Source of the DNA: an uncultured Actinomycetota bacterium
GTDB taxonomy: Bacteria; Actinomycetota; Actinomycetes; Mycobacteriales; Mycobacteriaceae
Direction: 5' to 3'
Length of the DNA: 64,000 nt
NCBI GenBank assembly: GCA_963712615.1
Contig: CAVQIO010000005.1
Location: forward strand, 924 to 64,923
Of this stretch, positions 8,183-29,625 are shown piece after piece. A model generated the notes under the pieces. That model ran no database searches. It was given only the letters and a program-made list of their open reading frames with translations, and had not been told where the DNA came from. Position 1 is the stretch's first letter; each line of letters begins with the position of its first letter. The translations under genes and the position numbers were made by a program.

Positions 8183-8644
8183 TCAGGTCCGCAAAGCCGC
8201 CAGCGCATCGGTCCACAAATGCTGATCGCGCGCTTCGCCGGGCTCTTTCATCTCGGCGAATTGGATGATCCCGGTGCGGTCGACGACGAAGGTGCCGCGA
8301 TTGGAATAGCCGGCCTGGTCGTTGAACACGCCATAGGCCTGGCTGACCTCGCCGTGCGGCCAGAAATCCGACAGCACCGGAAACGTGAACCCGCTCTCGA
8401 TGGCCCAAATCTTGTGCGTGGGCGGCGGCCCTACCGAGATCGCCAGCGCCACGCTGTCGTCGTTGTCGAATTCAGGCAGGTGATCGCGCAGCCGGTCCAG
8501 CTCACCCTGGCAGATCCCGGTGAACGCCAACGGGAAAAACACCAGCAGAACGTTCTTGTCGCCGCGGTAACTGCTCAGGGTGACGCGCTGCTGGTTCTGG
8601 TCGCGCAGAGTGAAATCCGGTGCCGTCGTCCCGACGGGCAGCAT
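8183..8644 (-). CDS. ahpE: 1-Cys peroxiredoxin AhpE
   Basis: 153 aa starting MLPVGTTAPDFTLRDQNQQ...FFPLAFTGICQGEL; near-identical pattern to Mtb Rv2238c as I recall it. The start overlaps the upstream stop (TAATG). Confidence 0.9.
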   Translation of the reverse strand: MLPVGTTAPDFTLRDQNQQRVTLSSYRGDKNVLLVFFPLAFTGICQGELDRLRDHLPEFDNDDSVALAISVGPPPTHKIWAIESGFTFPVLSDFWPHGEVSQAYGVFNDQAGYSNRGTFVVDRTGIIQFAEMKEPGEARDQHLWTDALAALRT

Positions 8645-9066
8645 TAACGCTTCCCGGCGCGCGACTTCGGTTGCACCAACCGGCTGGCGCTCCAATCACC
8701 CAGGCTGACCGACGAGGTCGGCATCAGGCCGGCGGTCGGAGCCGCCTCGGCGATCTCGGCAGGCAGCACGTGGCCAGGTTTGCCGGTCTTGGGTGTCAAC
8801 ACCCAGATCACGCCATCCTCGGCCAGCGGCGTGATGGCGTCCATCAGGGTGTCCACCAGATCGCCATCGCCATCTCGCCACCACAGCAGCACGACGTCGA
8901 CCACCTCGTCGGTGTCTTCATCGAGTAACTCGGAGCCACAGGCTTCCTCGACCGCACCGCGGATGTTGTCGTCGGTGTCTTCGTCCCAGCCCCACTCCTG
9001 GACAACCTGGTCTCGTTGGACGCCCAGTTTGCGAGCATAGTTCGGGGCGTCGTCCGCCTCGACCAC
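8644..9066 (-). CDS. DUF3052-family protein (Rv2239c-like)
   Basis: 140 aa acidic protein directly upstream of ahpE in the same order as Mtb; translationally coupled to ahpE. Confidence 0.75.
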   Translation of the reverse strand: MVEADDAPNYARKLGVQRDQVVQEWGWDEDTDDNIRGAVEEACGSELLDEDTDEVVDVVLLWWRDGDGDLVDTLMDAITPLAEDGVIWVLTPKTGKPGHVLPAEIAEAAPTAGLMPTSSVSLGDWSASRLVQPKSRAGKR

Positions 9067-9153
9067 CGTGAAGCCTCCTTACACCACAACAACCCTGCAC
9101 GCCATGCGACGGGGATTATCGTCGCACAGCCAGAACCTGGTCCACACGCCGCC

Positions 9154-9744
9154 TCAAAAGGACGACAGGCAGAGTTTCAGCGCCTTGGTCTTGGTGTCGT
9201 TGAGCTGATCGACCCGTCGGTTGAATTCGCCGGTCGCCGCGTGGGTGCCGATCGCGTTCGCCACCCCGTGAGCCGCGTCGATATAGGCGTTGAACGCGTC
9301 CTTCAGCTGCGACGACAGCGCATCGCTGAAACTATTGCTCACCGTCGACGCGCTGTTGTTGAGCGCAGCGACGGCCGGGCCCTCGAGCGGCCCGGTGCCG
9401 CGGCCCCCGTTGAACGCACCCACGAAGGCGTTCACCTTGTCGATTGCGTCCTTGCTGGTGGTGGCCAGCGAGTCGCACGAGCTGCGCACCGCCTTGGTCG
9501 TCAGCGACTGTTGCCGCTGGGACTCCCGGACGCTCGACGTCGCTACCGAGGCAGACACCGACGACGACACCGACTGCCGGTAGGCCGGGGCCATCTTCGT
9601 ATCGGGCGTAGCTGTGCCGTTGGTGACGGTGGTACACCCCACGATGCCCATCAGCAGGGTCGCGATGCAGCCGAGCGCCAGCACGCCACGCTTGGCGAAC
9701 TCTCCCCCATGCGTGCGAGGGACGACTTTCCATCCGATGAGCAC
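9154..9744 (-). CDS. Putative lipoprotein (Rv2240c-like); GTG start inferred
   Basis: Signal peptide with lipobox LMGIVGC, then a Ser/Ala-rich helical domain. The longer ORF-track start (10161) would overlap aceE and is rejected. Confidence 0.6.
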
Positions 9745-9917
9745 GGTTTCTGACGTTACCGGGTGGCGGTAGCTGGTGCCCTCGACGCACCGAGATTGGA
9801 TGCCGGTAGGTGAATCCTTCGAGAGCGAAGGGGTTGCGCCTACCCGCCCGAGGCGCCGGTACGGCACGATAGAGAGACGAACATGCATGCAGGTAACCGC
9901 CAACAGCAGGAGCGCAA

Positions 9918-12707
<2,790 letters not shown>

Positions 12708-12716
12708 CCGCAACCG

Positions 12717-12781
12717 CCGAGTGTGCGGCCAGCTTCACGTTGGGCTTCGAGTGTGCGGCCAGCTTCACGCTCGGCGCCGAG
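12717..12781. repeat. 30-bp tandem repeat, ~2.2 copies
   Basis: cgagtgtgcggccagcttcacg occurs at 12718-12739 and 12748-12769 (period 30), followed by a partial third unit cgagcattg. Confidence 0.9.
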
Positions 12782-12852
12782 CATTGAGACACCCCTAAGG
12801 CCCAGGACCTGCTTTGGCGGAAAGTTCTAGAATTCAGGCGTAGATTTTAGGG

Positions 12853-14175
12853 GTGAGTGACAACCCCTTCGCTGGCCCATTCGCCAAGCCGAGGTCGCCG
12901 CTGGGGCTGCTGGACTCGGTCCCGGAGACGCTGCTGCGCCGGTTGAAGCAACATTCCGGCCGGCTGGCAACCGAGGCCGTCTCTGCCATGCAAGAACGGT
13001 TGCCCTTCTTCGCCGACCTGGAGGCCTCCCAGCGGGCCAGCGTCTCGCTGGTGGTGCAGACCGCGGTGGTGAACTTCGTCGAGTGGATGAATGACCCCCA
13101 TAGCAACGTCAGCTACACCGCGCAGGCATTCGAGCTGGTCCCCCAGGAGCTGACCCGACGCATTCCCCTGCGCCACAGCGTCGAGATGGTGCGCGTCGCG
13201 ATGGAGTTCTTCGAGGAGGTCGTGCCGCTGGTGGCCCGCTCCGAAGAACAGCTGACCGCCCTGACGGTGGGCATTTTGAAGTACAGCCGCGACCTCGCGT
13301 TCACCCTGGCCTCGGCCCACGCCGAGGCGGCCGAAGCCCGCGGCACCTGGGACAGCCGGATGGAGGCCAGCGTCGTGGACGCCGTGGTGCGCGGCGACAC
13401 CGGCCCCGAGCTGTTGTCCCGCGCTGCCGCGCTGAATTGGGACACCACCGCGCCGGCGACGGTCATGGTCGGAGCCCCGGCCCCAGACCGCGGCAACACC
13501 AATGGCGAGGGCGCCAGCGAGCGGGCCAGCCAAATCGTCCGCGACACCGCCACTCGTCACGGGCGCGCGGCGCTCACCGACGTGCACGGCACCTGGTTGG
13601 TGGCAATCGTGTCGGGACAGTTGTCGCCGACCGACAAATTTCTGGGCGACCTGCTGAGGGCGTTTTCCGAGGGCCCGGTGGTCATCGGGCCCACCGCGCC
13701 GATGCTGACCGCGGCCTATCACAGCGCCAGCGAGGCGATATCCGGGATGAACGCCGTGGCCGGCTGGGCCGGAGCGCCGCGGCCCGTGCTGGCACGAGAG
13801 CTGTTACCGGAACGCGCCCTGATGGGAGATGCGTCGGCCATCGTGGCGCTGCACACCGACGTGATGGGGCCGCTGGCCGACGCCGGGCCCACGCTCATTG
13901 AAACTCTTGATGCTTACTTAGATTGTGGCGGCGCGATTGAGGCCTGCGCCCGCAAGTTGTTCGTTCATCCAAACACCGTGCGATATCGCCTCAAGCGCAT
14001 CACCGACTTCACCGGGCGTGATCCCACCCAACCCCGCGACGCCTACGTGTTGCGAGTGGCCGCGACGGTCGGCCAACTCAACTACCCCACCCACCCCTCT
14101 GGTGTTGGTAACAGCGCGATAACGGCGGTTCCACTGCCGGTCAGAGGGGGTTCCGCGGCGTCATCTGTGCGATAG
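12853..14175 (+). CDS. mabR: PucR-family transcriptional regulator of the FAS-II operon (Rv2242/MabR orthologue)
   Basis: 440 aa with C-terminal HTH FVHPNTVRYRLKRITDFTG. Sits between aceE and fabD, as in Mtb. Confidence 0.85.
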   Translation: MSDNPFAGPFAKPRSPLGLLDSVPETLLRRLKQHSGRLATEAVSAMQERLPFFADLEASQRASVSLVVQTAVVNFVEWMNDPHSNVSYTAQAFELVPQELTRRIPLRHSVEMVRVAMEFFEEVVPLVARSEEQLTALTVGILKYSRDLAFTLASAHAEAAEARGTWDSRMEASVVDAVVRGDTGPELLSRAAALNWDTTAPATVMVGAPAPDRGNTNGEGASERASQIVRDTATRHGRAALTDVHGTWLVAIVSGQLSPTDKFLGDLLRAFSEGPVVIGPTAPMLTAAYHSASEAISGMNAVAGWAGAPRPVLARELLPERALMGDASAIVALHTDVMGPLADAGPTLIETLDAYLDCGGAIEACARKLFVHPNTVRYRLKRITDFTGRDPTQPRDAYVLRVAATVGQLNYPTHPSGVGNSAITAVPLPVRGGSAASSVR

Positions 14176-14218
14176 TGATCCAAGCAACAGATCGCGGCCC
14201 GGTATCAAATACGTAGCT

Positions 14219-14299
14219 TGTGGAGCGGTTTTGTGGACTACCTACAAAAACCTAAGACGAGGTTCATAATCTGTTACACCCGCCAAAACCGTTTCCACA
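14219..14299 (+). promoter_or_regulatory. fabD (FAS-II operon) promoter/operator region with nested inverted repeats
   Basis: TTTTGT-N9-ACAAAA at 14229-14249. Outer arms tgtggagcggttttg (14219-14233) and caaaaccgtttccaca (14284-14299). A cataat -10-like hexamer lies at 14265-14270. Confidence 0.6.
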
Positions 14300-14315
14300 G
14301 TGTTCTCTTAGACAT

Positions 14316-15224
14316 GTGATTGCATTACTCGCGCCCGGACAGGGTTCACAGACCGAGGGGATGCTCTCGCCGTGGCTGGAGTTGCCCGGCGCGAGCGAGC
14401 AGCTGACCCTGTGGGCGAAGGCCAGCGGCCTGGACCTGGTGCGCCTGGGCACCACCGCGTCGACCGAAGAGATCACCGACACGGCGGTCACCCAGCCCCT
14501 GGTCGTCGCCGCCACCCTGCTCGCGCATCAGGAGCTGACCAAGCGCGGCGTGCTCGCCGGCGAAGACTTCATCGTGGCCGGCCACTCGGTCGGCGAGATC
14601 GCCGCCTACGCGATCGCCGGTGTGATGGGCGCCGATGACGCCGTCGCGCTGGCCGCCACCCGTGGCGCCGAGATGGCCAAGGCGTGCGCCGCCGAGCCGA
14701 CCGGCATGTCCGCGGTGCTGGGCGGAGACGAGACCGAAGTCCTGGCCCGCCTCGAGCAGCTCGACCTGATCCCCGCCAACCGCAATGCCGCCGGGCAGAT
14801 TGTCGCCGCCGGCGCGCTGACCGCGCTGGAAAAGCTCGCCGAAGACCCGCCCGCCAAGGCCCGGGTGCGCGCTCTCGGTGTGGCCGGAGCGTTCCACACG
14901 AGGTACATGGCGTCCGCCCTGGACGGCTATGCCGCCTCCGCCGCCGCGATCGCGACCGCCGAGCCCACTGCCACGCTGCTGTCCAACCGCGACGGAAAGC
15001 CGGTCACCACGGCGGCTGTGGCGATGGAAGCGCTGGTCGCTCAGCTGACCCAGCCGGTGCGCTGGGACCTGTGCACCGCGACGCTGGCCGAGCACGATGT
15101 CAAAGCGATTGTGGAGTTCCCCCCCGCGGGCACCCTCGCCGGCATCGCCAAACGCGAGCTTCGGGGGGTGCCGGTACGTGCCGTCAAGACGCCCGCAGAC
15201 CTGGACGCGCTAGCTGACATCTAA
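14316..15224 (+). CDS. fabD: Malonyl-CoA:ACP transacylase
   Basis: MIALLAPGQGSQTEGM...GHSVGEIAAYAIAG, collinear with Mtb FabD. Confidence 0.95.
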   Translation: MIALLAPGQGSQTEGMLSPWLELPGASEQLTLWAKASGLDLVRLGTTASTEEITDTAVTQPLVVAATLLAHQELTKRGVLAGEDFIVAGHSVGEIAAYAIAGVMGADDAVALAATRGAEMAKACAAEPTGMSAVLGGDETEVLARLEQLDLIPANRNAAGQIVAAGALTALEKLAEDPPAKARVRALGVAGAFHTRYMASALDGYAASAAAIATAEPTATLLSNRDGKPVTTAAVAMEALVAQLTQPVRWDLCTATLAEHDVKAIVEFPPAGTLAGIAKRELRGVPVRAVKTPADLDALADI

Positions 15225-15305
15225 CGCCGGTTAGCGGCCAGTACAACCGCATAAGAGCACATCAATCCGATTTGCACACAACACATTACGAAGGGAACAA
15301 AGGCT

Positions 15306-15649
15306 GTGTCTGTTAGTCAAGAAGAAATCATTGCCGGTATTGCTGAGATCATCGAAGAGGTCACCGGTATCGAGCCTTCCGAGGTCACCCCGGAGAAGTC
15401 GTTCGTCGACGACCTGGACATCGACTCGCTGTCGATGGTCGAGATCGCCGTGCAGACCGAGGACAAGTACGGCGTGAAGATCCCCGACGAGGACCTCGCC
15501 GGTCTTCGTACCGTCGGCGACGTCGTCTCCTACATCCAGAAGCTCGAGGAAGAAGACCCCGAGGCGGCCGCCGCGCTGCGCGCCAAGCTGGAGACCGAGA
15601 ACCCTGACGCTGTTGCCAACGTCAAGGCGAGGCTGGAAGCGGACAGCAA

Positions 15650-15653
<4 letters not shown>
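15306..15653 (+). CDS. acpM: Meromycolate-extension acyl carrier protein
   Basis: 115 aa with the [12 protein letters not shown] phosphopantetheine site and the long C-terminal extension typical of AcpM. Confidence 0.95.
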
Positions 15654-16900
<1,247 letters not shown>

Positions 16901-16926
16901 GCACGAGAGGAACGTCCGTCAGTCCC

Positions 16927-18180
16927 ATGACAGAACTGGTTACCGGGAAAGCCTTCCCCAACGTCGTCGTCACCGGCGTTGCCATGACGACTGCCCTGGC
17001 ACCCGACGTGGAAAACACCTGGAAGTTGTTGCTAGACGGCCAGAGTGGGATCCGCACCCTCACCGATCCGTTCGTTGAGCAGTACAACCTGCCGGTTCAC
17101 ATTGGCGGCCATCTCGTGGAGGAGTTCGACAGTCAGCTCACTCGTGTTGAGCTGCGTCGCACCAGCTACCTGCAGAGAATGTCCACCATCTTGGGCCGCC
17201 GCGTGTGGGAGAACGCGGGTTCACCCGAAGTCGACACCAACCGGTTGGCGGTGTCGATCGGCACCGGCCTCGGCTCGTCCGAGGAACTGGTCTTCAGCTA
17301 CGACGACATGCGCACCCGCGGCATGAAGGCGGTCTCCCCATTGGGCGTGCAGAAGTACATGCCTAACGGTGCGGCCGCGGCGGTCGGCCTGGAACGGCAC
17401 GCCAAAGCCGGTGTGATGACCCCGATTTCGGCGTGCGCGTCCGGTTGCGAGGGCATCGCCCGGGCTTGGCAGCAGATCGTGCTGGGTGAGGCCGACATGG
17501 CGATCTGCGGCGGCGTCGAGACTAAAATCGAGGCGGTCCCGATCGCGGCCTTCGCCGCGATGCGCATCGTGATGTCGACCAACAACGACAACCCCGCCGG
17601 TGCCTGTCGCCCGTTCGACAGAGACCGCGACGGTTTCGTGTTCGGCGAGGCCGGCGCGCTCATGGTCATCGAGACCGAAGAGCACGCGAAAGCGCGGGGC
17701 GCCAACATCCTGGCCCGCATCATGGGAGCCAGCGTGACCTCGGACGGATTCCACATGGTGGCACCGGACCCCAACGGGGAACGTGCCGGGCATGCGATGA
17801 CGCGTGCGATCCAGCTCGCGGGCATCACCCCTGCCGAAATCGACCACATCAACGCCCACGCCACTGGCACCCAGGTCGGCGACCTCGCCGAAAGTAAGGC
17901 CATCAAACGGGCTTTGGGCAACAACCACCCCGCGGTCTACGCGCCAAAGGCGGCGCTCGGCCACTCGGTGGGTGCGGTGGGTGCGTTGGAGTCGATCTTG
18001 ACGGTCCTCGCGTTGCGGGAGCAGGTCATCCCGCCGACACTGAATTTGGAAAACATCGATCCAGAAATCGATTTAGATGTGGTAGCAGGTAAGCCACGAT
18101 CCGGTAACTACCAGTACGCGATCAACAACTCGTTCGGATTCGGCGGTCACAATGTGGCGATCACCTTTGGACGGTATTAG
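16927..18180 (+). CDS. kasB: Beta-ketoacyl-ACP synthase KasB
   Basis: 417 aa paralogue of KasA ([30 protein letters not shown]) in the canonical operon position. Confidence 0.95.
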
Positions 18181-18228
18181 AACCCAGCGGCATTGATCCC
18201 GAGCTTCACCTGAAACAGGAGATCTGCG

Positions 18229-19650
18229 ATGACACTCATGGCCCCCGACGCGGTCGGCGAGTCGCTCGACCCGCGCGACCCGCTGCTGCGGCTGAGCAAT
18301 TTCTTCGACGACGGCAGCATCGTGCTGTTGCACGAGCGTGACCGCTCGGGTGTGCTTGCCGCGGCGGGCACCGTGAACGGTCTGCGCACCATCGCGTTCT
18401 GCACGGACGGAACCGTGATGGGTGGCGCGATGGGCATCGACGGCTGCACGCACATCGTCAACGCCTACGACACCGCCATCGAGGAACAGAGCCCGATCGT
18501 CGGCATCTGGCACTCCGGTGGTGCCCGGCTGGCCGAAGGCGTCAAGGGACTGCACGCGGTGGGCTTGGTGTTCGAGGCCATGATCCGAGCGTCCGGCTAC
18601 ATTCCGCAGATTTCGGTGGTCGTCGGCTTCGCCGCCGGCGGTGCCGCCTACGGGCCGGCGCTGACCGACGTCATCGTGATGGCGCCGGAAAGCCGGGTGT
18701 TCGTCACCGGGCCGGACGTGGTGCGCAGTGTCACCGGCGAGGACGTGGACATGTGCTCGCTCGGTGGGCCGGAAACCCACCACAAGAAGTCCGGCGTGTG
18801 CCACATCGTCGCCGACGACGAGCTCGATGCCTACGAGCGCGGCCGCCGACTGGTCGGATTGTTCTGCCAGCAAGGGCATTTCGACCGCAACAAGGCCGAG
18901 GCCGGAGACACTGACATCCACGCGCTGCTGCCCGAATCGGCGCGGCGCGCCTACGACGTGCACCCGATCGTGACCGCGATCCTCGACGACGACGCACCGT
19001 TTGACGAGTTCCAGGGCCACTGGGCGCCGTCGATGGTGGTCGGGCTGGGCCGGCTGTCCGGCCGCACGGTCGGCGTGCTGGCCAACAACCCGCTGCGGCT
19101 GGGCGGCTGCCTGAACTCCGAAAGCGCGGAGAAGGCAGCACGTTTCGTGCGGATGTGCGACTCATTCGGGATTCCGCTGGTTGTGGTTGTCGACGTTCCC
19201 GGCTACCTCCCGGGTGTCGACCAGGAATGGGGTGGCGTGGTGCGCCGCGGCGCCAAACTGCTACACGCCTTCGGCGAGGCCACCGTTCCGCGCGTCACGC
19301 TGGTCACCCGAAAGACCTACGGCGGGGCCTACATCGCGATGAACTCCCGTTCATTGAACGCCACCAAGGTGTTCGCCTGGCCGGACGCCGAGGTCGCGGT
19401 CATGGGCGCCAAAGCCGCGGTCGGCATCCTGCACAAGCGCAAGCTGGCCGCCGCGCCGGACGACGAGCGCGAAGCGCTGCACGAAGAGTTAGCCGCCGAA
19501 CACGAGCGGATCGCCGGCGGCGTGGACAGCGCCATCGAGATCGGCGTGGTCGACGAGAAGATCGACCCGGCGCACACCCGCAGCAGGCTCACACAGGCGC
19601 TGGCCCAGGCACCGGCACGTCGCGGGCGCCACAAGAACATTCCGCTGTAA
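18229..19650 (+). CDS. accD6: Acyl-CoA carboxylase carboxyltransferase beta subunit
   Basis: 473 aa carboxyltransferase; last gene of the FAS-II operon, as in Mtb Rv2247. Confidence 0.9.
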   Translation: MTLMAPDAVGESLDPRDPLLRLSNFFDDGSIVLLHERDRSGVLAAAGTVNGLRTIAFCTDGTVMGGAMGIDGCTHIVNAYDTAIEEQSPIVGIWHSGGARLAEGVKGLHAVGLVFEAMIRASGYIPQISVVVGFAAGGAAYGPALTDVIVMAPESRVFVTGPDVVRSVTGEDVDMCSLGGPETHHKKSGVCHIVADDELDAYERGRRLVGLFCQQGHFDRNKAEAGDTDIHALLPESARRAYDVHPIVTAILDDDAPFDEFQGHWAPSMVVGLGRLSGRTVGVLANNPLRLGGCLNSESAEKAARFVRMCDSFGIPLVVVVDVPGYLPGVDQEWGGVVRRGAKLLHAFGEATVPRVTLVTRKTYGGAYIAMNSRSLNATKVFAWPDAEVAVMGAKAAVGILHKRKLAAAPDDEREALHEELAAEHERIAGGVDSAIEIGVVDEKIDPAHTRSRLTQALAQAPARRGRHKNIPL

Positions 19651-19724
19651 ACCGGCCTCCGGCCCGCTTCTCCCCCACGAACCTAACCAGGCTGCGAATT
19701 TTCGTGCGGAATTCCGCAGTACGG

Positions 19725-21097
19725 TTAGGCTCGCGAGCCGCTCGCTAATTCGCGAGCCTCCTCCTCGGTCTCGACCGCGGGACCGGACCCGGGCAACGGC
19801 TTGCCGGCGACCTCCGGCATGAACAGCAAGGTGATCACCCCGACCAGGCCCGCGACCATCAGCATGTAGGCCGGCACCATGTCATTGCCGGTACCCACCA
19901 CCAGCGCTTGAGCGATCAACGGCGTGACACCGCCGACGGTGGATATCGACAGGTTGTAGGAAATGGCCAGCGCCCGTAGCGCACCCTGGTGGGAAACAGT
20001 GCCGGCAACGCCGAGGGCGTCGTGCTGTCGAAGCAGAGTTCCATCAGCCCGATCAGCAGCACACCCAGGAAGATCACCGGATAGCCGCCGCCGAGGCGCA
20101 TCAGCAGAAACGCCGGGATTGAAGCCACGATCAGCAGGACGCAACCCGTCCGCATGATCGGTTTTACGCCGATGCGGTCAGACAGCTTCGCGACGAACAC
20201 GATCGTGGCCATCAGGATGGCCAGGGTGACCACGATCAGCACCACTGCCGGCGTTTCCCCAAGGTGCACAACCGTTTTCAAGTATGTCGGCAGGTAGCCG
20301 GTGACCATGAAGTCGGCGACTTGTGAGGTCAACACCAGGGCGGCGCAGATCAGCATCGGCCGCCACTGCTCCACGACGGTGTGCCGGAATTGGTGACGGC
20401 CGTCCTCTTTGGCGGCATCCGCGCTCTGACTCATGTGCGTGAACGCCGATGACTCCTCGAGTCGCAGTCGCATGTACAACGCGATCAGACCCATGGGCGC
20501 CGCCAGCAGCAACGGGACCCGCCAGCCCCAGGCCAACCAGTCGTGACGCGGCAGCCACGCCTGCAGCCCGGTCACCAGGAAGCCGGCGACCACAAAGCCG
20601 ATCAAGTTGCCCAACGGCAGAAACCCGACCAGCATGCCGCGCTTACGGTCCGGAGACTGCTCCACCAGGTAGGTCATCGCACCGACGAATTCGCCGCCGG
20701 TCGACAACCCCTGGAAGACTCTGGCGACGACGAGCAGGACCGGCGCCCAGATGCCGATGGCGCTGTAACCGGGCAGCAGGCCGCTCGTCGTCGTCCCGGC
20801 GGTCATCCTCAGGATCGTGATCACCAGCACCCGCTTGCGGCCGATCCGGTCACCGAGCGGCCCGAAGATCACGCCGCCCAGCGGACGCACCACAAACGCC
20901 GCCGCCAGGGTGCCGAAGGTGGCGATCAGGTGCACAGCACTCGCGCTGTTCCCGGGATAGAACACCTGCGCGATGGTGGTGGCGATGTAGCCGTAGACCC
21001 CGAAGTCGTACCACTCCATGACATTGCCGATCGCGGTGCCCGTGATCGCTTGGGACATCACGCTCGGATCGGTGACCGTGATCTCTTCACGCGCCAC
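19725..21097 (-). pseudogene. MFS (MHS/ProP-like) metabolite:H+ symporter with one frameshift
   Basis: Two ORFs (19916-21097 and 19725-20144) join as ...ALFPTRVRYG|ALAISYNLSISTVGGVTPL. The shift maps to a G-run (coding strand) at 19972-19974. Confidence 0.75.
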
Positions 21098-21244
21098 TTC
21101 TGCCGAGCGACTTCAGTGCCCATCGACACCCTGTTACCCGAACTTCGTCGGGTCGAACCGGGGAACGCGGGTTAGCCCACGCCCGGGCGCTCGCAGCTGG
21201 CGGCGATGACGTAGGGCACCGGGGCGCGGTAGCGGGCCACGCCT

Positions 21245-21323
21245 CACACCCGCAGCAACCTCACCCAGGCGCTGGCGCAGGCACCGCACGTCGCGGACGC
21301 CACAAGAACATCTCGCTGTAAAC
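21245..21323 (+). pseudogene. Relic copy of the last ~80 nt of accD6, including its stop codon
   Basis: Aligns with 19573-19652 with 8 differences (one 1-nt gap): cacacccgcagca...caggcgctggc...gccacaagaacat..cgctgtaaac. Confidence 0.85.
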
Positions 21324-21479
21324 ACCACACCTTCTCGGGACCTAGCGGCAGAGGATCGTCGACACTGCTTGTCGTAGAGCGCTTTCCGGATTATCGGGAA
21401 GCATCTCGGCACGCCAGCCGACGAAATCGTCGGGACGGACGAGCAGCGCACCGCTTGGCCCGAGTCGAGTAATCTCCGC

Positions 21480-22889
21480 CTACTGTTCGCTGTCGACGCG
21501 GTGCGCACTGACAGACGCCGAAGCCGCTGCGGCACACCATCGTTCGTCACCGCTCAGCAACGTAAACCCGGGACCCAGCAGGTCCAGTGTCGAGACTCGA
21601 TCCGCTACCCACGCATGCGGAACACGCGTTCCCGGTTGGCCGCGCAACTCCATCACCAGCTCGCTCTCGTCGGCCGAGCCGTCCAGAACCGCGGCCGAGT
21701 GGTAACGGTAGCCGACGAGCAACGCAAACATCGAGCACTCCTCGTCGGGCGGCAAGCGCGGGCGATCCTCGTCCAGCCGGAGCAACGGAATCGTCGGGCC
21801 CGTTAGCGATTGACGGGCGGCGAAGCGCCCGACCGGATGCCGCTCGGCGTGAAAGGTGTCAAGCAACGCCGAGCCCGCCGAGCCCTGCAGGACGGCGGCC
21901 AACTTCCAGGCCAGGTTGTGCGCGCTTTGGATCGCGGTGTTGGCTCCCCCGGCCTTGAACGGCGGCATGGTGTGCGCCGAATCGCCGACGAGAAATGCTC
22001 GCCCGCATTGGAATTGGTCGGCTACCTGTTCATACGGTTGCCAAGCCACGGCCTCGATGATGTCGAGCTCGATGCGCTCGCCGATCGCCTTGGTCAGGAT
22101 CTCGCAGCAGCGCTGTGGCGTGAACTCTGCTGCAGACTCGCCCTCGCCGGGCAAGTAGGTGGCGATGAACATGCCGAGGTCGCCGTCGGCCGGAATGAAA
22201 ATACCTTGCGCGTCGGCATTATTGACTTGCACGCCATCGCCTTCGCCCAAGTCGGCGACGAACTTGCGCCAGGGTCCTCGAAAGTAGATGAAGACAACGA
22301 AGATGGGCAGCGCACCGTAGCCGGAGGTAGTGATCCCCAGCGCGTTACGAATCGGACTGTGCACGCCGTCGGCGCCGACGAGATAGTCCGCCCGCACTGT
22401 CTGCGACTCACCGGAGTCCCGATCGCGCACGACGGCCGTCACGCCGGATCCGTCGGAATCGAACGAGCAGAGTTCGGTTCCGTAGCGCACTTCGCCGCCA
22501 CGGCGTCGGGTCTCGGCGACCAGCATCGGTTCGGACCTACTCTGCGGGCAATACTGGATGGTCGGCTCGGGGCTGAACTCGCCCAGGCCGGCGAAGATCC
22601 TATCCAGGTCGATAGCCGGTTTTTCTTGTGTGCTGTTCAGCGTCGACCGGGCCACCACAGTCGATTCGCGCTGGCTGATCGCGTGGATCTCATCGCTCAG
22701 GCCAAGGCCGCGCAGGATCTCCAGGCTGCGGAAGCTGAGATTCCGCGCTTTCGGATACAGGAAGACCTCGCGCCGCTTCTCCACCAGCAATGAGCGAACC
22801 CCATGCTTGCCAAGCAGCGCGGAGGTCGCCAGTCCGGCGGCACCGGCGCCGACGATCAGCACGGGGACGTGCGGGATGTTGACGCTCAT
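21480..22889 (-). CDS. FAD-dependent aromatic-ring monooxygenase (PheA/TfdB-like)
   Basis: 469 aa. N-terminal GxGxxG (VLIVGAGAAGLATS), a DG motif and a GD motif (FLVGDSAHTMPPFKAGG). Confidence 0.8.
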   Translation of the reverse strand: MSVNIPHVPVLIVGAGAAGLATSALLGKHGVRSLLVEKRREVFLYPKARNLSFRSLEILRGLGLSDEIHAISQRESTVVARSTLNSTQEKPAIDLDRIFAGLGEFSPEPTIQYCPQSRSEPMLVAETRRRGGEVRYGTELCSFDSDGSGVTAVVRDRDSGESQTVRADYLVGADGVHSPIRNALGITTSGYGALPIFVVFIYFRGPWRKFVADLGEGDGVQVNNADAQGIFIPADGDLGMFIATYLPGEGESAAEFTPQRCCEILTKAIGERIELDIIEAVAWQPYEQVADQFQCGRAFLVGDSAHTMPPFKAGGANTAIQSAHNLAWKLAAVLQGSAGSALLDTFHAERHPVGRFAARQSLTGPTIPLLRLDEDRPRLPPDEECSMFALLVGYRYHSAAVLDGSADESELVMELRGQPGTRVPHAWVADRVSTLDLLGPGFTLLSGDERWCAAAASASVSAHRVDSEQ

Positions 22890-22984
22890 GCTCGCTCCTC
22901 AATCCGAAACGAGTCAGTTCCGTTCTATCTCAGGCTGGCATTCACTTCAGTGGTATGCAAGCGCCCGTCCTGAAGGCCCGCGCG

Positions 22985-23611
22985 CTAGTAGGCCGTGAGC
23001 GGCAGCAGGACCTGTTCTAGCGCGCGTCGCACGTAGACGCGATCGATCGGTCGCCCCGTCATCAGGCGCAGCACGTTGAGCCCCAAGAGGGCATCGGGTA
23101 TCAGTGACGTGTCCCGGCCGGCCGGAATCTCGCCCCGGGCCACCGCCTGGTCGACGACCGCGTTGACCACCTGACGGGGGATCGACAACACCAGGTCGTC
23201 CAACGCGGCGGCGAGCACGGGATGATGCACCGCCGCCGTAGCCACGCCGAGAATCACCTTGATCGTGCTCAGCGCGGCTTCATCCAGCTCTGGCACAGCC
23301 GCCACCAGGGCGCTGATGTCGCCGCTGATGCTTCCCGTATTCGGCGGCTCCACGGGTCCAAGTCCTCGTCGCCAATGGGCGATTGCCTCGGCGACCACCG
23401 CAGCCTTTGACGGCCAGCGTCGGTAGATCGCCGCCTTCCCGACGCTCGCGCGGGACGCGACGTCGTCCATGCTCATCCGGTCGTAGCCCCGTTCACCCAC
23501 CGCCTCCAGCGCGGCCTGGAGGATGGCGGCGTCAAGCGACGGATCGAAGCGTCCGGGATTTCTACCCAATGACCGGCGCGCTGGACGCGCCGCTCGGTCA
23601 CCCTCAACCAC
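22985..23611 (-). CDS. TetR-family transcriptional regulator
   Basis: HTH region MSMDDVASRASVGKAAIYRRWPSK; lies upstream of the monooxygenase on the same strand. Confidence 0.8.
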   Translation of the reverse strand: MVEGDRAARPARRSLGRNPGRFDPSLDAAILQAALEAVGERGYDRMSMDDVASRASVGKAAIYRRWPSKAAVVAEAIAHWRRGLGPVEPPNTGSISGDISALVAAVPELDEAALSTIKVILGVATAAVHHPVLAAALDDLVLSIPRQVVNAVVDQAVARGEIPAGRDTSLIPDALLGLNVLRLMTGRPIDRVYVRRALEQVLLPLTAY

Positions 23612-23692
23612 GGCAAATTTCCTTCGTTAAGGCGAGACGCATTGGTTCCGATTAATCTACTCGGATCGCAAACCACGCCGCAACGACGCGGA

Positions 23693-25222
23693 TCAAGGCA
23701 ACAGAGCCAGGAACTCCGCCACCTCGGCCACTACCCGCTCGCGATCGCGGGGCACCAGGCCGATGCGGGTCCGGCGATCGAGGATGTCGTCGACGTTGAG
23801 CGCGCACTCATGGGTGACGGCGTATTCGAACTCCGCGCGGGTCACGTCGACGCCCTCGGCGACCGGCTCGGCCGGGCGCCCGCAGGTGGCAACCGCGATC
23901 ACATTGGGCGCCTCGGCGCCATAGCGGGCCACCAGTGACGCGGGCAGCCCGGCCGTCGAACCTGCGACCGGCCCGGGGTTGGCCGGTGACCCGATCAGCG
24001 GCAGATTGCGGGTCCGGCAGCGCGCAGCCTGCAGCCCACGCAGGCCGACGGCTTGGTCCAGCACATCCTCTGCCATGAAGCGGTATTCGGTCAGCTTGCC
24101 GCCGATCACGCTGATGACTCCGGACGGCGATTCGATGACGGCGTGCTCGCGCGACACGTCGGCCGTGCGACCCTCGCCGGTGTCGATCAGCGGCCGCAGC
24201 CCCGCGTAGGCGCCGACGACATCGGTGGGCAACAGCGCGGTTCCCAGCGCCGTGTTCACGGTGTCCAACAGGAAGGTGATTTCCTGGTCGGACGGTTCCG
24301 GCACATCGGGAATCGCACCGGGGGCCGCCTCATCGGTGAGACCGAGATAGACGCGGCCCAGTTGTTCGGGCATGGCGAACACGAAACGGTTGAGCTCGCC
24401 GGGAATCGGAATCGTCAGTGCCGCAGTCGGATTGCCGAGTGCGCTGGCATCGAAGACGAGGTGGGTTCCGCGGCTGGGCCGCAACCGCAACGAGCCGTCG
24501 ATCTCACCCGCCCACACCCCGGCGGCGTTGATCACCGCGCCGGCCGTGACGTCGAACGACTGCCCCGTGCGCTGATCGGTCAGCCGCACCGAAGTGCCGG
24601 TGGCCTCGGATGCCGCGACGTAGGTGAGGATTCGGGCGCCGTGCTGAGCGGCGGTGCGCGCGACCGCGGTGACCAGCCGGGCGTCGTCGATCAATTGCCC
24701 GTCGTAGGCCAGCAGACCGCCGTCGAGGCCGTCGCGGCGCACCGTGGGCGCCATCTCCACCACCCGCTGTGCGGGCACCCAGCGGGATCGGGGCAGGGTC
24801 GACGACGATGTTCCCGCAAGCATCCGCAACGCGTCGCCTGCGACAAACCCCGCGCGCACCATCGCACGCTTGGGGTGGCTCATCGACGGCAGTAACGGGA
24901 CCAGTTGCGGCATCGCGTGCACGAGATGAGGGGCGTTGTGCGTCATCAGGATTCCGCGCTCGATGGCGCTGCGCCGGGCGATTCCCACGTTGCCGGTCGC
25001 CAGGTAGCGCAGACCGCCGTGCACCAGTTTGGAACTCCAGCGGCTGGTGCCGAACGCCAGATCGTGCTTTTCCACCAGCGCCACCCGCAGGCCGCGCGAG
25101 GCGGCGTCCAGGGCGATCCCGACCCCGGTGATGCCGCCTCCGATCACGAGCACGTCCAGCGGCTCGCCGTCGGCGAGGGCGTTCAGATCGGCGGTGCGGC
25201 GCGCGGCGTTCAAGGCGGTCAT
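23693..25222 (-). CDS. glpD: FAD-dependent glycerol-3-phosphate dehydrogenase
   Basis: Start MTALNAARR at 25222; DVLVIGGGITGVGIALDAASRG...SSKLVHGGLRYL. Position equals Mtb glpD1 (Rv2249c). Confidence 0.9.
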   Translation of the reverse strand: MTALNAARRTADLNALADGEPLDVLVIGGGITGVGIALDAASRGLRVALVEKHDLAFGTSRWSSKLVHGGLRYLATGNVGIARRSAIERGILMTHNAPHLVHAMPQLVPLLPSMSHPKRAMVRAGFVAGDALRMLAGTSSSTLPRSRWVPAQRVVEMAPTVRRDGLDGGLLAYDGQLIDDARLVTAVARTAAQHGARILTYVAASEATGTSVRLTDQRTGQSFDVTAGAVINAAGVWAGEIDGSLRLRPSRGTHLVFDASALGNPTAALTIPIPGELNRFVFAMPEQLGRVYLGLTDEAAPGAIPDVPEPSDQEITFLLDTVNTALGTALLPTDVVGAYAGLRPLIDTGEGRTADVSREHAVIESPSGVISVIGGKLTEYRFMAEDVLDQAVGLRGLQAARCRTRNLPLIGSPANPGPVAGSTAGLPASLVARYGAEAPNVIAVATCGRPAEPVAEGVDVTRAEFEYAVTHECALNVDDILDRRTRIGLVPRDRERVVAEVAEFLALLP

Positions 25223-25791
25223 CAGGACAGGTATCCGTTCAGTGAGTAAGCGAGTTCGGCGGCCAGCGCGTCGGCATCGAGGATCGGGCGCACGATCTGC
25301 TCGGACTGAATGGTCGACTGGGCGATCAGCAACACCATGGTGGCCAGCTGCCATGGGTCACCCGCCCGCACGCTGCCGTGGCGCTGAGCCGCCCGCAACC
25401 GGTCGGCAAGGGCCTCGATCAACATCTGCTGGCTGGAACCGAGGCGTTCGGTGATGTAGATCGGCGCGAGGTGCGAGTGCATCACCGACATGATCAGCTC
25501 GTCGTGCCGCAGCAGGTTGGCCACCGCAACAATCTGGCGCACCAGCGATTCGCGGTCGTCCCCCAGCAGCGGCGCATCGCGCATCACCTCGGTGATGCGC
25601 TGGGTCAGCAGCGACGCCACGATCGACGGCGTATCCGGCCAGCGCCGGTACACGGTCGGCCGGCTCACACCAGCGCGCCGGGCGATCTCCGCGAGGGTCA
25701 CCCGGTCTACGCCGAAGTCGACGACGCAGCTGGCCGCCGCCGCCAGGATCCGGTCACCCACGTCTAATCCTGCGTTACTGATTGACAGCAT
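25222..25791 (-). CDS. TetR-family regulator (Rv2250c-like)
   Basis: 189 aa from MLSISNAGLD...; HTH TLAEIARRAGVSRPTVYRRWPD. Its stop overlaps the glpD start by 1 nt. Confidence 0.85.
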   Translation of the reverse strand: MLSISNAGLDVGDRILAAAASCVVDFGVDRVTLAEIARRAGVSRPTVYRRWPDTPSIVASLLTQRITEVMRDAPLLGDDRESLVRQIVAVANLLRHDELIMSVMHSHLAPIYITERLGSSQQMLIEALADRLRAAQRHGSVRAGDPWQLATMVLLIAQSTIQSEQIVRPILDADALAAELAYSLNGYLS

Positions 25792-25808
25792 ATGTAATAC
25801 TGTAACGC

Positions 25809-27419
25809 ATGACGCAATCCGAGGCACTTCTTCCGCCGATGAAATGGAACGCGTGGGGAGATCCTGCCAGCGCCAAACCACTCTCCGACGGCATCCGATC
25901 ATTGCTGAAACAGGCTGTCGGACTGGAAGATTCGCAGCACGACGAACTCGCCGCGGACCAGGTACAGCTGCGCCCGTCGGCGCTGTCGAAGGCGGATCGG
26001 GACGCGCTCGCCGGGATCGTGGGCGCCGAGTATTGCCGCACCGACGATCGCGATCGGCTGCTGCACGCGGGCGGCAAGTCCACCCTTGACCTGCTCCGCC
26101 GCAAAGACACCGGCGTACAGGATGCGCCCGACGCCATCCTGCTGCCCGGCGAAGAGGAGGCCGTCGCCGCGATCCTGCAGTACTGCTCCGAGCACCGCAT
26201 CGCCGTGATCCCGTTCGGCGGTGGCACCAATGTCGTCGGCGGTCTCAATCCCACCCGCGGCGACTTTGGCGCTGTCGTCTCCGTTGACCTGCGTCGCTTC
26301 GACCAACTCATCTCGCTCGACGAAGTCTCCGGCCAGGCCGTCCTGGGCGCGGGCCTCACCGGTCCGGACGCAGAACGCCTGCTCGGCGAACGCGGCTTCT
26401 CGCTCGGGCACTTCCCGCAGAGCTTCGAATACGCCACCATCGGCGGTTTCGCCGCGACCCGTTCCTCCGGTCAGGATTCGGCCGGCTACGGCCGGTTCAA
26501 CGACATGGTGCGTGGGCTGCGGATGATTACCCCGGCGGGAACGCTGGACCTGGGCCGCGGACCGGAATCGGCCGCAGGCCCCGATCTGCGGCAGCTGGTG
26601 ATCGGGTCGGAGGGCACCTTCGGCGTCATCACGCAGGTGCGGCTGCGGGTACACCGGGCACCCGAAGCCGTCCGCTACGAAGCCTGGTCGTTTCCCGATT
26701 TCGCGACCGGCGCCGCGGCGCTGCGTGCTGCTACCCAGAATGCGACCGGCCCCACCGTCATTCGGCTCTCCGATGACGTTGAGACCGGGGTCAACCTGGC
26801 CACCACCGAGGCGATCGGCGAAAACCAGATCACCGGCGGCTGCCTGGGCATCACCGTCTTCGAGGGCAGCAAGGACCACGTCGAGAGCCGGTACGCCGAG
26901 ACCAGCGCCCTGCTGACGGCCCAGGGCGGCACGTCGTTGCGCGAAGGTCCCGCCCAGGCCTGGGAGCGCGGCCGGTTCGGCGCGCCGTATCTGCGCGACT
27001 CGCTGCTGGCCGCGGGTGCGCTCTGCGAGACGCTGGAGAGCGCCACCGACTGGTCCAACATCCCGACGCTCAAAGCCGCTGTCACCGAAGCACTCACCAC
27101 CGCGTTGGCAGAAACCGGGACACCGGCGCTGGTGATGTGCCACATTTCGCACGTGTACCCCACCGGCGCGTCGTTGTACTTCACCGTCGTCGCGGGGCAG
27201 CGCGGCAACCCGATCGAGCAATGGCAGACCGCCAAGAAGGCCGCATCCGACGCGATCATCGCCAGCGGCGGCACCATCACCCATCACCACGCGGTCGGCG
27301 CCGACCACCGGCCCTGGATGCGCGACGAAGTGGGCGATCTGGGCGTGCAGGTGTTGCGCGCGGTCAAGGCGACTCTGGATCCGGCGGGAATCCTCAACCC
27401 CGGCAAGCTGATTCCGTGA
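25809..27419 (+). CDS. FAD-linked oxidase (alkyl-DHAP-synthase-like, Rv2251-like)
   Basis: 536 aa with an FAD-binding PCMH-type domain (IPFGGGTNVVGG) and a C-terminal HHHAVGADH motif. Confidence 0.85.
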   Translation: MTQSEALLPPMKWNAWGDPASAKPLSDGIRSLLKQAVGLEDSQHDELAADQVQLRPSALSKADRDALAGIVGAEYCRTDDRDRLLHAGGKSTLDLLRRKDTGVQDAPDAILLPGEEEAVAAILQYCSEHRIAVIPFGGGTNVVGGLNPTRGDFGAVVSVDLRRFDQLISLDEVSGQAVLGAGLTGPDAERLLGERGFSLGHFPQSFEYATIGGFAATRSSGQDSAGYGRFNDMVRGLRMITPAGTLDLGRGPESAAGPDLRQLVIGSEGTFGVITQVRLRVHRAPEAVRYEAWSFPDFATGAAALRAATQNATGPTVIRLSDDVETGVNLATTEAIGENQITGGCLGITVFEGSKDHVESRYAETSALLTAQGGTSLREGPAQAWERGRFGAPYLRDSLLAAGALCETLESATDWSNIPTLKAAVTEALTTALAETGTPALVMCHISHVYPTGASLYFTVVAGQRGNPIEQWQTAKKAASDAIIASGGTITHHHAVGADHRPWMRDEVGDLGVQVLRAVKATLDPAGILNPGKLIP

Positions 27420-28348
27420 CACCCGCGGCAGGGCAACTGCGCCAGCGCGAGATCAGCAAGGTGACCGTGCTGACCAATCCCCTGTCGGGGCACGGCGCCG
27501 CCATCCATGCGGCGCAGGCCGCCATCGCCCGGCTACACGCTCGCGGCGTCGAGGTCGTCGAGATCATCGGCGACGACGCCGAAGACGCCCGTCATCTCGC
27601 GGCCGCCGCTCTCGACCGCGGCACCGACGCGCTGATCGCCACCGGCGGCGACGGCGTCATCTCCAATGCGCTGCAAGTCTTGGCGGGTACCGACGTTCCG
27701 CTGGGCATCATCCCGGCCGGCACCGGCAACGATCACGCACGCGAATTCGGCATTCCCACAAAGTATCCCGAGGCCGCCGCAGATATCGTCGCCGACGGTT
27801 GGACCCAAACGATCGATCTGGGTCGCATCCGCGATGCCAACGGTGTCCACAAGTGGTTCGGCACCGTGGCGGCCACCGGATTCGATTCCCTGGTGACCGA
27901 TCGCGCCAACCGGATGAGCTGGCCGCATGGGCGGCTGCGCTATTACGTCGCGATGCTCGCCGAGCTTTCGCAATTGCGGATGTTGCCGTTTCGCTTGGTG
28001 CTCGACGGCACCAAGGAGATCGACGCCGATATCACGCTGGCGGCCTTCGGAAATACCCGAAGCTATGGCGGCGGGCTGCTGGTCTGCCCCAACGCCGACT
28101 ACACCGACGGCCTGCTCGACATCACCATGGCGCACGGCGCATCCCGGACGAAACTGATCCGGCTGTTTCCGACCGTGCTGAAAGGCACGCACGTCGAGCG
28201 CGACGAAGTGAGCACGGCGCGCGCCACCACGATCCATGTCGAATGCCCCGGTATCAACGTCTACGCCGACGGCGACTTCGCGTGTCCGCTGCCCGCCGAA
28301 CTCTCCGCGGCACCCGGGGCATTGCAGATTCTGCGGGCGGGCCGGTGA
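27416..28348 (+). CDS. dagK: Diacylglycerol/lipid kinase (Rv2252-like)
   Basis: GTG at 27416 overlaps the upstream stop (GTGA). VTVLTNPLSGHG...TGGDGVISNALQ...GIIPAGTGNDHAREFG is collinear with Mtb DagK. Confidence 0.9.
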   Translation: MTPAAGQLRQREISKVTVLTNPLSGHGAAIHAAQAAIARLHARGVEVVEIIGDDAEDARHLAAAALDRGTDALIATGGDGVISNALQVLAGTDVPLGIIPAGTGNDHAREFGIPTKYPEAAADIVADGWTQTIDLGRIRDANGVHKWFGTVAATGFDSLVTDRANRMSWPHGRLRYYVAMLAELSQLRMLPFRLVLDGTKEIDADITLAAFGNTRSYGGGLLVCPNADYTDGLLDITMAHGASRTKLIRLFPTVLKGTHVERDEVSTARATTIHVECPGINVYADGDFACPLPAELSAAPGALQILRAGR

Positions 28349-28359
28349 CGAACTGGGCC

Positions 28360-29625
28360 TTAGATGGTCTGGTGGCGTCCAAAGAATTCGTGGTCTTCGT
28401 TGTAACCACCGTAACCGCTACCGAGCTCGGAGTAGTGCGCCACAAACTCAATTCCCTTGAGCCACTTCACATGCCGGAAGCCGTGCTGTAACTCGTTGCG
28501 CAGCCGCAGTGGCGCCCCGTGCCCGTAGCTCACCGGTTCACCGTTCATGTCGTAGGCCAGCATGGTCAGGTGGTTGTTCATCTGCTCGATCGGGTGCGCG
28601 ACGTAGTAGATCCCGCCGTCGGCGCCGGGGCCCAGGGAGTAGAACACCACCCATTTGGCATCGGGCAGCGGTTGGACGATGTCCATGATCGTTCGCATCG
28701 ACACGCCACCCCATTTGGCGACACCCGACCAGCCCTGGATACAGAAGTGCTGGGTGATCTGTTCGTGGTACGGCAGGTCATGCAACTCGCCCAGCGAGAA
28801 CTCGGTCGGGTGCTCGACGAGGCCGTAGATCCGTAGCCGCCAATCCACGAAGTTGTTCTTCTCCAACTCTTCGTACTCAACGGTTTCCGGGTAGGTGCCG
28901 TTGTGCCAGAAGTAGGGCGAGATGTCTTTCTCGGTGAACGCGCCGGGCTTCGGGTTGGTGTACTCGAACAGCCGCTGCAGCGGCCCGACGAGTGCGTAGC
29001 CGACGCGCTGCACCAGCCGCGGGTGACGAAAGGTGAGCGGGGTGGCGGCCACCCAGCCGACAGCCACCACCACCATGGCCGCCGCGAAGATCCAGAACCC
29101 GACCCAGCTGTTGTCGTCGCGGGCGGCGAACATGTGGTTGAGGTTGCGCAACGCCTCGGTGGCGAAGACCAGCGTCACGTGGACAACGATGAAGAACAGG
29201 AAATAGATCAGCACCAGGAAATGCAGCGAGCGCGCGGCCTGGATGCTCAGCCGCTTGCTGATCACGGTGAGGCGCATCGACAGCGCCGGCGACATCCCCA
29301 GCCCGGTGATGACCGCGAGCGGGGCGGCAATGAAGACGGTGGCGAAGTACGCCAGCAACTGCATCCCGTTATAGGCCACCCACGTGCTATCGGTCGGCCA
29401 GTCCAGCGAAAGGTACTGAATGCCTATCGATACCGCGTTGGGAAACACGTCCCAGCTGGTCGGTACGATGTGGCGCCACTGCCCGGTAGCAAATAACAGG
29501 ACGTAGAAGACCGCGCCGTTGAGCAGCCACAAGACGTCGACGCCGAGGTGCCACCACCGAGCCAGTCCAATGGAATGGCGCAGCCCCGGCAATCCCAACT
29601 GAGCGGGTAGCCCCACCGAATCGTC
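28360..29625 (-). pseudogene. Molybdopterin-dependent oxidoreductase (cytochrome-b-like TM + sulfite-oxidase-family Moco domain), C-terminal part, split by an IS
   Basis: The frame continues upstream of the ORF-track start as ...DDS-VGLPAQLGLPGLRHS. The Moco domain shows HFCIQGWSGVAKWGGV...GAPLRLR. Confidence 0.85.

Follow-up and report, generated by a model that had tools for sequence, protein, structure and literature searches.

A scar behind accD6 in an environmental Mycobacterium probably marks two stacked versions of the accD6-glpD interval

Why does the end of accD6, the last gene of a block of type II fatty acid synthase (FAS-II) genes, occur a second time behind the intact gene in an environmental mycobacterium? 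The question is raised by a stretch of 64,000 nucleotides (nt) from an uncultured Actinomycetota bacterium of a soil metagenome (assembly GCA_963712615.1, contig CAVQIO010000005.1, positions 924 to 64,923), hereafter termed the window. A preceding interpretation of the letters alone (the sequence-only reading) had pointed out that the last 80 nt of accD6 recur behind a gene of the major facilitator superfamily (MFS) located on the opposite strand. In our analysis the second copy, which we call the ghost or accD6', is fused to a remnant of the gene glpD (glpD'), and this glpD'|accD6' scar probably marks the head-to-tail join of two alternative versions of the accD6-glpD interval, both of them complete, likely via horizontal transfer with a homologous event on one side and an illegitimate event on the other. 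The elements that define the scar are listed below, with L001-L080 referring to loci of related genomes and L081 and L082 to contigs assembled from metagenomic runs.

19573-19652, plus strand: first copy of the repeat, the true accD6 tail, with the last 78 nt of the gene including its TAA and two further nt; assigned by alignment and shuffling, and by G19586 and T19641, which are common only to the closest relatives L001 and L002.
21098-21171, no strand: spacer at the 5' end of the MFS gene (spB), whose counterpart in L001 and L007 is the collinear MFS-glpD spacer (79-86% identity in blastn).
21172-21240, minus strand: glpD' remnant, composed of the stop codon (TTA on the plus strand at 21172-21174) and three codons (to 21183), a deletion of about 165 nt and an internal piece (21184-21240); assigned by alignment to L001, L007 and L005.
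21241-21323, plus strand: accD6' ghost, the last ~80 nt of accD6 with TAA at 21319-21321, carrying a 1-nt deletion and private substitutions; assigned by alignment and shuffling, with the same sequence found in contigs L081 and L082.

Local alignment of both accD6 copies reproduced the coordinates of the sequence-only reading exactly (19573-19652 and 21245-21323), with 72 of 80 columns being identical and its eight differences resolving into seven substitutions and one 1-nt gap. The same pair was returned by repeat finding in the window (repeats D4 and D5), and the homology of the ghost may extend 3-4 nt further to the left, to about 21241. Within this 90% match, the longest run of identical residues encompasses 14 nt. 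The comparison with shuffled sequence that had been proposed as a check was carried out with 500 dinucleotide-preserving shuffles, which score 20.7 on average (standard deviation 2.7, maximum 34), thus placing the observed score of 118 about 35 standard deviations higher. For comparison with other species we have assembled 80 Mycobacterium loci with their flanks from a genome scan with AccD6, and the ghost matches the accD6 tails of all of them at 80-92% identity. A chance or convergent similarity, with 21245-21323 being part of another conserved gene, would have only the G+C-rich genome in its favour and is refuted by the alignment score, by the matches to all 80 tails and by the lack of any Pfam or Rfam match, so that we assign it a negligible probability. 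The sole open reading frame (ORF) across the ghost (21134-21550, minus strand) has no match in Pfam, and the region 19000-22000 has none in Rfam; the possibility that the repeat would turn out to belong to a conserved unrelated gene, which had been named as a potential refutation, has therefore been checked and does not apply.

The ghost is located between the start of the MFS gene (21097) and the native stop codon of a gene coding for a FAD-dependent monooxygenase (FADmo, 21342). It contains only the last ~27 codons of accD6, with the 1-nt deletion opposite 19614, and is preceded by the glpD remnant on the opposite strand. Since the deletion breaks the frame and since no accD6 sequence is found upstream, the ghost is non-coding. 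Three of its eight differences to the tail are private (G>C opposite 19587, the deletion opposite 19614 and C>T opposite 19642) and affect sites that are either invariant or nearly so in the 80 species, or free of insertions and deletions. On the basis of this pattern, the three changes look like decay. Similarity to a functional parent, absence of coding capacity and neutral decay are found together here, as in gene remnants in general, and the notion of a displaced accD6 end left behind as a genuine scar that brackets the MFS gene is thus retained from the sequence-only reading. The ghost is a real but ordinary recombination footprint, and a scar or gene remnant of this sort is a known kind of thing.

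The partner of the ghost had escaped attention. The region between both accD6 copies, described as holding only a hairpin-rich spacer and the MFS gene, does contain both, but also the 3' remnant of glpD at 21172-21240. The internal piece of this remnant (21184-21240) corresponds to a region ~190-250 nt from the glpD stop; its homologous segments are 13164-13223 in L001 and 23895-23948 in the full-length glpD of the window, the latter similarity being repeat D3. Its terminus, GGGTTAGCC, is of the type found in L001 and L007, unlike the end of the full-length glpD of the window. At about 21240/21241, glpD' on the minus strand is fused to accD6' on the plus strand. Sequence from the downstream end of the interval is here joined to sequence from its upstream end, with the flanks repeated in direct orientation, as in junctions resulting from tandem duplication or a single crossover.

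The entire locus shows the order accD6 - hairpin - MFS(-) - glpD'|accD6' - FADmo(-) - TetR(-) - glpD(-). The elements on either side of the scar are the following.

19677-19734, no strand: long hairpin formed by an imperfect palindrome where accD6 and MFS converge; folding of 19645-19770 gives z-scores of -2.4 (plus) and -4.1 (minus), and both arms were recovered by pattern search.
19725-21097, minus strand: MFS transporter pseudogene (metabolite/H+ symporter family, ProP-like), split into two ORFs; Pfam Sugar_tr and MFS_1.
21342-22889, minus strand: FADmo, a FAD-dependent aromatic-ring monooxygenase resembling RdmE/DnrF, with an in-frame TAG (W470*) that leaves an ORF at 21480-22889; Pfam, NCBIfam and tblastn.
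22985-23611, minus strand: TetR-family regulator, part of a FADmo-TetR cassette; Pfam TetR_N and TetR_C_11, 84% identity to L039 and 82% to L062.
23612-23715, minus strand: TetR-glpD spacer and last seven codons of the full-length glpD, of the type found with TetR cassettes; alignment with L062, L069 and L025.
23693-25354, minus strand: full-length glpD, whose 3' 370 nt are mosaic; Pfam DAO and DAO_C, resembling L001 (93-95%) from about 24061 on.

The closest relative of the window is L001, a soil metagenome-assembled genome (MAG) with 98% amino acid identity in the AccD6 scan, followed by the M. simiae group. In the 72 loci whose flanks extend to glpD, the accD6-glpD interval varies between 58 and 8695 nt and displays five architectures: FADmo only (40 loci), FADmo followed by TetR (14), MFS only (7), FADmo followed by MFS (1) and none of these genes (10). 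Neither a second accD6 tail nor the order MFS-FADmo-TetR is found in any of these 72 loci, and the glpD'|accD6' junction is absent from all 80. Collinearity with L001 extends over 8246-21159 (95.2% identity) and 23706-29625 (93.6%) of the window, and the additional part, 21160-23705, is exactly glpD', accD6', FADmo, TetR and the adjacent spacer.

The borders of the individual segments find their counterparts in two different groups of relatives. Those between accD6, hairpin and MFS and those between MFS, spacer and glpD match L001 and L007. The native stop of FADmo is separated by 20 nt from the TAA of the ghost, and in relatives with FADmo next to an intact accD6 (e.g. L039, L004, L010 and L061) 14-22 nt lie between both stop codons; like the genomes where FADmo adjoins accD6, the ghost is not followed by a hairpin of the kind found behind the functional gene. 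The border encompassing TetR, spacer and glpD, including the last seven glpD codons, matches the TetR-bearing loci L062, L069 and L025. In the terminal segment at 23693-23715, the window is only 52% identical to L001, compared to 91% between L001 and L007. The remnant glpD' carries the L001/L007-type terminus and the full-length glpD that of TetR-bearing loci. As judged from these borders, the locus can be read as a type A interval (hairpin, MFS, spacer and glpD end, as in L001) placed in tandem with a type B interval (accD6 end, FADmo, TetR, spacer and glpD), each with both of its native borders, and the ghost constitutes the native left flank of the FADmo-TetR cassette. The comparison of the accD6-glpD interval across genomes that the sequence-only reading had called for has thus revealed a hypervariable slot, with an MFS gene residing behind accD6 in the absence of a ghost in L001 and with the ghost assigned to a type B flank. 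In slow-growing mycobacteria this slot, framed by the conserved genes accD6 and glpD, is occupied in different species by MFS (type A), by FADmo alone or together with TetR (type B), by both or by neither, and the two cassettes normally stand in place of each other. A candidate second copy of the MFS-side spacer at 23660-23692 was rejected, as alignment with L062 and L069 identified it as a normal TetR-glpD spacer.

Several observations on the relatives themselves deserve mention. The longest interval, of 8.7 kb, is found in L079, a Mycobacterium MAG that contains two tandem FADmo paralogues (15514-18355) with 75% and 71% identity to the gene of the window. In L002 (MAG SMAG_U4301), a comparison with 16177-19650 of the window shows 97% identity for accD6 and only 85% for kasB, while L001 is ~96-97% identical in both, a contrast that points to recombination in the L002 lineage with a breakpoint between these two genes. 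L001 contains a 17-nt tandem duplication at 12950-12997 (two copies of AGCAGACCGGGTTAGCC) that takes in the glpD stop codon and differs from the window by several 1-nt indels, one of them at 16320 in kasA, a gene that the window carries intact; both features probably reflect assembly errors in the L001 MAG.

Could the same arrangement have been generated within a single genome? In a purely intragenomic scenario, an ancestor resembling L007 and containing both cassettes would have undergone a tandem duplication from accD6(-83) to glpD(+235), followed by complementary gene losses and divergence. The glpD'|accD6' joint is a classic tandem-duplication junction, the close relatives L007 (accD6-FADmo-MFS-glpD) and L002 carry both FADmo and MFS, and the divergence of FADmo from L007 is compatible with vertical descent. 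However, at least two further precise deletions would be required, which would have to recreate by chance both the accD6-hairpin-MFS border of L001 and the TetR-spacer-glpD border and terminus of L062 and L069. Moreover, L007 lacks TetR, and a search of its FADmo-MFS spacer for a comparable scar did not find any. A further argument against this scenario is provided by the five remaining differences between tail and ghost, which all reside at sites that are naturally polymorphic among species and at which the tail has states in common with L001 and L002. At two of these sites the tail shows derived states (G19586 and T19641) common only to L001 and L002, while the ghost shows the majority state. 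Tail and ghost consequently look like different alleles and not like the outcome of a recent self-copy, and the small sample of sites indicates that the ghost would descend from an accD6 allele outside the group formed by the window, L001 and L002. We thus consider an intragenomic duplication to be less parsimonious than stacking and, on balance, unlikely.

The layout had originally been taken for an MFS cassette inserted exactly at the 3' end of accD6. A mobile element undergoing site-specific integration at this position, with the 80-nt copies as equivalents of attL and attR, would account for the direct repeats of a gene 3' end around a 1.6-kb insert, which resemble the ends of integrative elements. 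It conflicts with the fact that L001, L003 and L005 show the same layout, with MFS directly behind accD6 but no second copy, and for this reason that part of the original proposal had to be abandoned. It also conflicts with the surroundings of the right copy (a glpD remnant joined to it on one side and, as in type B genomes, the FADmo stop directly following on the other), with the absence of an identical core longer than 14 nt and with the lack of inverted repeats between or near the copies. ORF lists and Pfam reveal no integrase or transposase between or near the repeats, with MFS, FADmo, TetR and glpD being the only genes there, and a plasmid search with 19500-21500 returned no match and no sign of a mobile cassette. 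Taken together, site-specific integration appears highly improbable. An insertion sequence or transposon was rejected as well, as there is neither a transposase ORF nor a pair of bounding inverted repeats and as a duplication of ~80 nt is far beyond the length of a target-site duplication.

Another concern relates to the origin of the sequence. As the window stems from a soil metagenome holding several related strains, contigs of an MFS-type and a FADmo-type strain might have been misjoined during assembly. The observed join, however, is made of decayed remnants (with the ~165-nt deletion in glpD' and the 1-nt deletion in accD6') that are present in neither parental type. A Logan contig from run SRR28061255 (L081) matches 19762-28889 with three mismatches and no gaps, and a contig of the separate run ERR11593391 (L082) is identical across the region from glpD' over the ghost to FADmo. 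The same junction is found in root-metagenome contigs of other studies (X3 and X22, spanning 20843-21600 and 21040-21700) at ~97-98% identity. Compared to the window, this sister haplotype carries differences inside the ghost or at its border (21243, 21278 and 21314) and within glpD' (21190, 21213 and 21218). Because it recurs in independent assemblies, including a haplotype diverged by 2-3%, the junction is not an assembly artefact, and we regard a chimera as very improbable, even slightly more so than site-specific integration.

How could two versions of the interval have been stacked? In the proposed sequence of events, DNA carrying the other version would have entered the cell by horizontal transfer, with conjugal transfer as a possible route of uptake, and would have recombined homologously on one side, probably inside glpD. 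The other side would have been joined illegitimately, in a process of homology-facilitated illegitimate recombination that combines a crossover in glpD with an illegitimate join. Alternative routes might involve circularisation by end joining followed by a single crossover, or the later trimming of a larger merodiploid duplication. In each case, duplicates of accD6 (about 83 nt) and glpD (about 235 nt) sequence would have been left behind, and the non-functional stubs have subsequently decayed, by the 1-nt deletion and private substitutions in accD6' and by the ~165-nt deletion and substitutions in glpD'. As the longest identical run of the two accD6 tails now amounts to only 14 nt, the arrangement is probably stable against loop-out.

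A number of observations weigh against the stacking of two versions by transfer or limit what can be said about it. A close donor genome for the FADmo-TetR block was not found: FADmo homologues reach at most 83% identity in a search of 5.8 billion proteins, and neither the glpD'|accD6' joint nor the one between ghost and FADmo was matched when JGI metagenome contigs were scanned for the exact patterns. The identity of FADmo to its counterparts in L007 and L002 (~80%) fits the generally fast divergence of this gene, with residuals within about one standard deviation in a regression across all locus pairs. Because FADmo diverges fast in all pairs, the block need not be recently foreign, and the idea that FADmo-TetR would be anomalously diverged, and thus foreign, was dropped. 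For a crossover inside glpD there is no more than a hint from the identity profile, which is mosaic: behind the TetR-type terminus, 23861-24060 is 81% identical to L001 (85.6% between L001 and L007), after which the identity to L001 rises to 93-95%. The same segment, in the 3' third of glpD, is hypervariable in all species compared (70-86% identity as opposed to 83-95% elsewhere, with indels in L005), and the last seven glpD codons differ by version. A clean crossover point in glpD was looked for, and the profile obtained was this mosaic within a segment that is hypervariable in all species. The junction itself is localised to about 4 nt (GCCT, 21241-21244), with an ambiguous microhomology of at most 2-3 nt that is blurred by decay and by differences between strains (C/G at 21243). 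Finally, the comparison would accommodate either a gain in the lineage of the window or a loss in L001 by loop-out between glpD' and glpD, and either type A or type B as the resident version.

If the stacking of two versions is accepted, it raises the question of whether the locus reflects a more general process. We propose tentatively, and with somewhat less than even confidence, that the accD6-glpD interval serves as a recombination-driven cassette-exchange slot in slow-growing mycobacteria, in which the flanking genes act as homology arms for horizontally acquired alleles, and that the window has captured a rare additive intermediate. If true, the scar would provide direct sequence evidence for the transfer of chromosomal DNA between lineages of environmental mycobacteria, followed by one homologous and one illegitimate join, and either of the single-cassette states could segregate from the stacked intermediate by loop-out.

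The genes MFS and FADmo carried by the two versions are both inactivated in this strain. The frameshift in MFS that had been noted earlier is evident from a comparison with nine related MFS genes, relative to all of which the window is one base short at 19973 in a run of CCC; the extra C is also found in contigs of runs X2, X3 and X4. When read through this position, the gene encodes an intact protein of 457 amino acids, which matches TIGR00883 (NCBIfam) and PRK10642 below their cut-offs. In case of FADmo, a tblastn search with its nearest homologue (P0002) aligns 515 amino acids without gaps through the in-frame TAG at 21480-21482, where homologues contain a Trp, and past this codon the frame stays open as far as the native stop at 21342-21344. 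The W470* mutation leaves an ORF of 469 amino acids and removes the C-terminal ~46 residues in the region of PF21274, a domain that is present at the C-terminus of all FADmo homologues (505-540 amino acids). In the sister haplotype of other metagenomes, which is 2-3% diverged, T>C at 21481 restores TGG. Since the essential neighbours kasA, kasB, accD6, fabD and acpM are all intact, the lesions in the cargo genes do not reflect general assembly noise. With respect to glpD, the longest ORF encompasses 553 amino acids and the gene called on the identical Logan contig 509 (L081 3668-5197), its true start being probably located downstream of the first ATG. A scan of 19400-21700 for sigma-70 promoters found nothing. 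The FAS-II genes that precede the interval are the following.

15650-16900, plus strand: kasA; ORF lists and Pfam/NCBIfam.
16927-18180, plus strand: kasB; ORF lists and Pfam/NCBIfam.
18229-19650, plus strand: accD6, intact, 473 amino acids, last gene of the kasA-kasB-accD6 FAS-II block; Pfam Carboxyl_trans with an E-value of 9e-126, 96% nt identity to L001; an exact match to the protein was not on record.

An insertion immediately behind accD6 had also been suspected to alter the termination of the operon. The hairpin following the functional gene begins 27 nt past its stop codon, in a spacer of 72 nt, and overlaps the stop codon of MFS (19725-19727). Near-perfect palindromes of ~55-65 nt are found behind the accD6 stop in at least 38 of the 80 loci, irrespective of the gene located downstream, with stabilities of up to -66 kcal/mol (examples being L069 11426-11493, L005, L007 and L034). 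They belong to two sequence families, starting with GAGCAGACGC in 27 loci and with GAGC[CG]TAAC in 11 loci, with degenerate copies of the latter in the window and in L001. Other copies of these motifs were not found in the window, which contains only this one hairpin. As in terminators, 19677-19734 provides a stable stem just behind a stop codon and between convergent genes; it lacks a U-tract, and a scan of 19400-21700 for U-tract terminators found no site with a T-run. A search of Rfam with the strong hairpin of L069 returned only sub-threshold chance matches to miRNA and snoRNA families. A terminator motif termed TRIT has been described in mycobacteria (PMC3152330), and the hairpins may correspond to it, a likeness drawn from the description in that paper only. 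Because the functional accD6 has kept the hairpin of its relatives, the comparison offers no reason to expect an altered FAS-II termination, and the suspicion finds no support in the sequence.

The footprint is concrete and datable and records a remodelling of the region just downstream of an essential FAS-II operon in mycobacteria, where whole versions of an interval would be exchanged between conserved flanks and occasionally added instead of replaced. It also carries a warning for annotation, since the 80-nt stretch resembling accD6 and the scrap resembling glpD are debris and neither genes nor regulatory RNAs, and since both cargo genes are pseudogenes, while the hairpin at the 3' end of the operon is untouched. 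No new molecular system is revealed by the locus, which instead serves as a clear-cut case of additive stacking beside the FAS-II operon of environmental mycobacteria.

The features of the scar can be related to several known systems. The integration of incoming linear DNA by homology-facilitated illegitimate recombination was reportedly described in 2002, by de Vries and Wackernagel and by Prudhomme et al. Both this process and circularisation followed by a single crossover have been documented in bacteria, including a case in E. coli (PMC3240628). Like the products of homology-facilitated illegitimate recombination, the window would, in the proposed reading, contain a foreign segment that was added and not exchanged, with one border in homology (glpD), the other with little or no microhomology and short stubs left behind. 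Unlike in the described cases, the process is here deduced from a scar, the duplicated anchor was kept, no recipient DNA was deleted and the host is an environmental Mycobacterium. The resemblance to the junctions of tandem duplications in merodiploids lies in the novel joint between downstream glpD and upstream accD6 and the repeated flanks in direct orientation; the two units differ from such duplications in not being mutual copies, as they contain different genes and different flank alleles. With attL/attR duplications, the locus shares the 3' end of a host gene that is found twice in direct orientation around an insert, with the host gene itself remaining intact, but it lacks a recombinase and an identical core, and its second copy is joined to what is left of a different chromosomal gene. 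In concept, the locus comes closest to the arrays of orphan modules at type VI secretion system (T6SS) effector-immunity, Rhs and contact-dependent inhibition (CDI) loci, where a resident module is displaced and not replaced: a newly arriving module carries a further copy of the end of a conserved gene with it and shifts the older module downstream (Kirchberger et al., 2017, PMC5361080). There, as in the window, a variable slot resides next to a conserved gene, the old module is kept and stubs of the conserved gene are located between the stacked modules. The cargo differs in consisting of a transporter of the MFS, a monooxygenase and a TetR regulator instead of toxin-immunity pairs, and only a single stacking event is observed; with MFS and FADmo both inactivated, nothing points to selection for retaining the displaced module.

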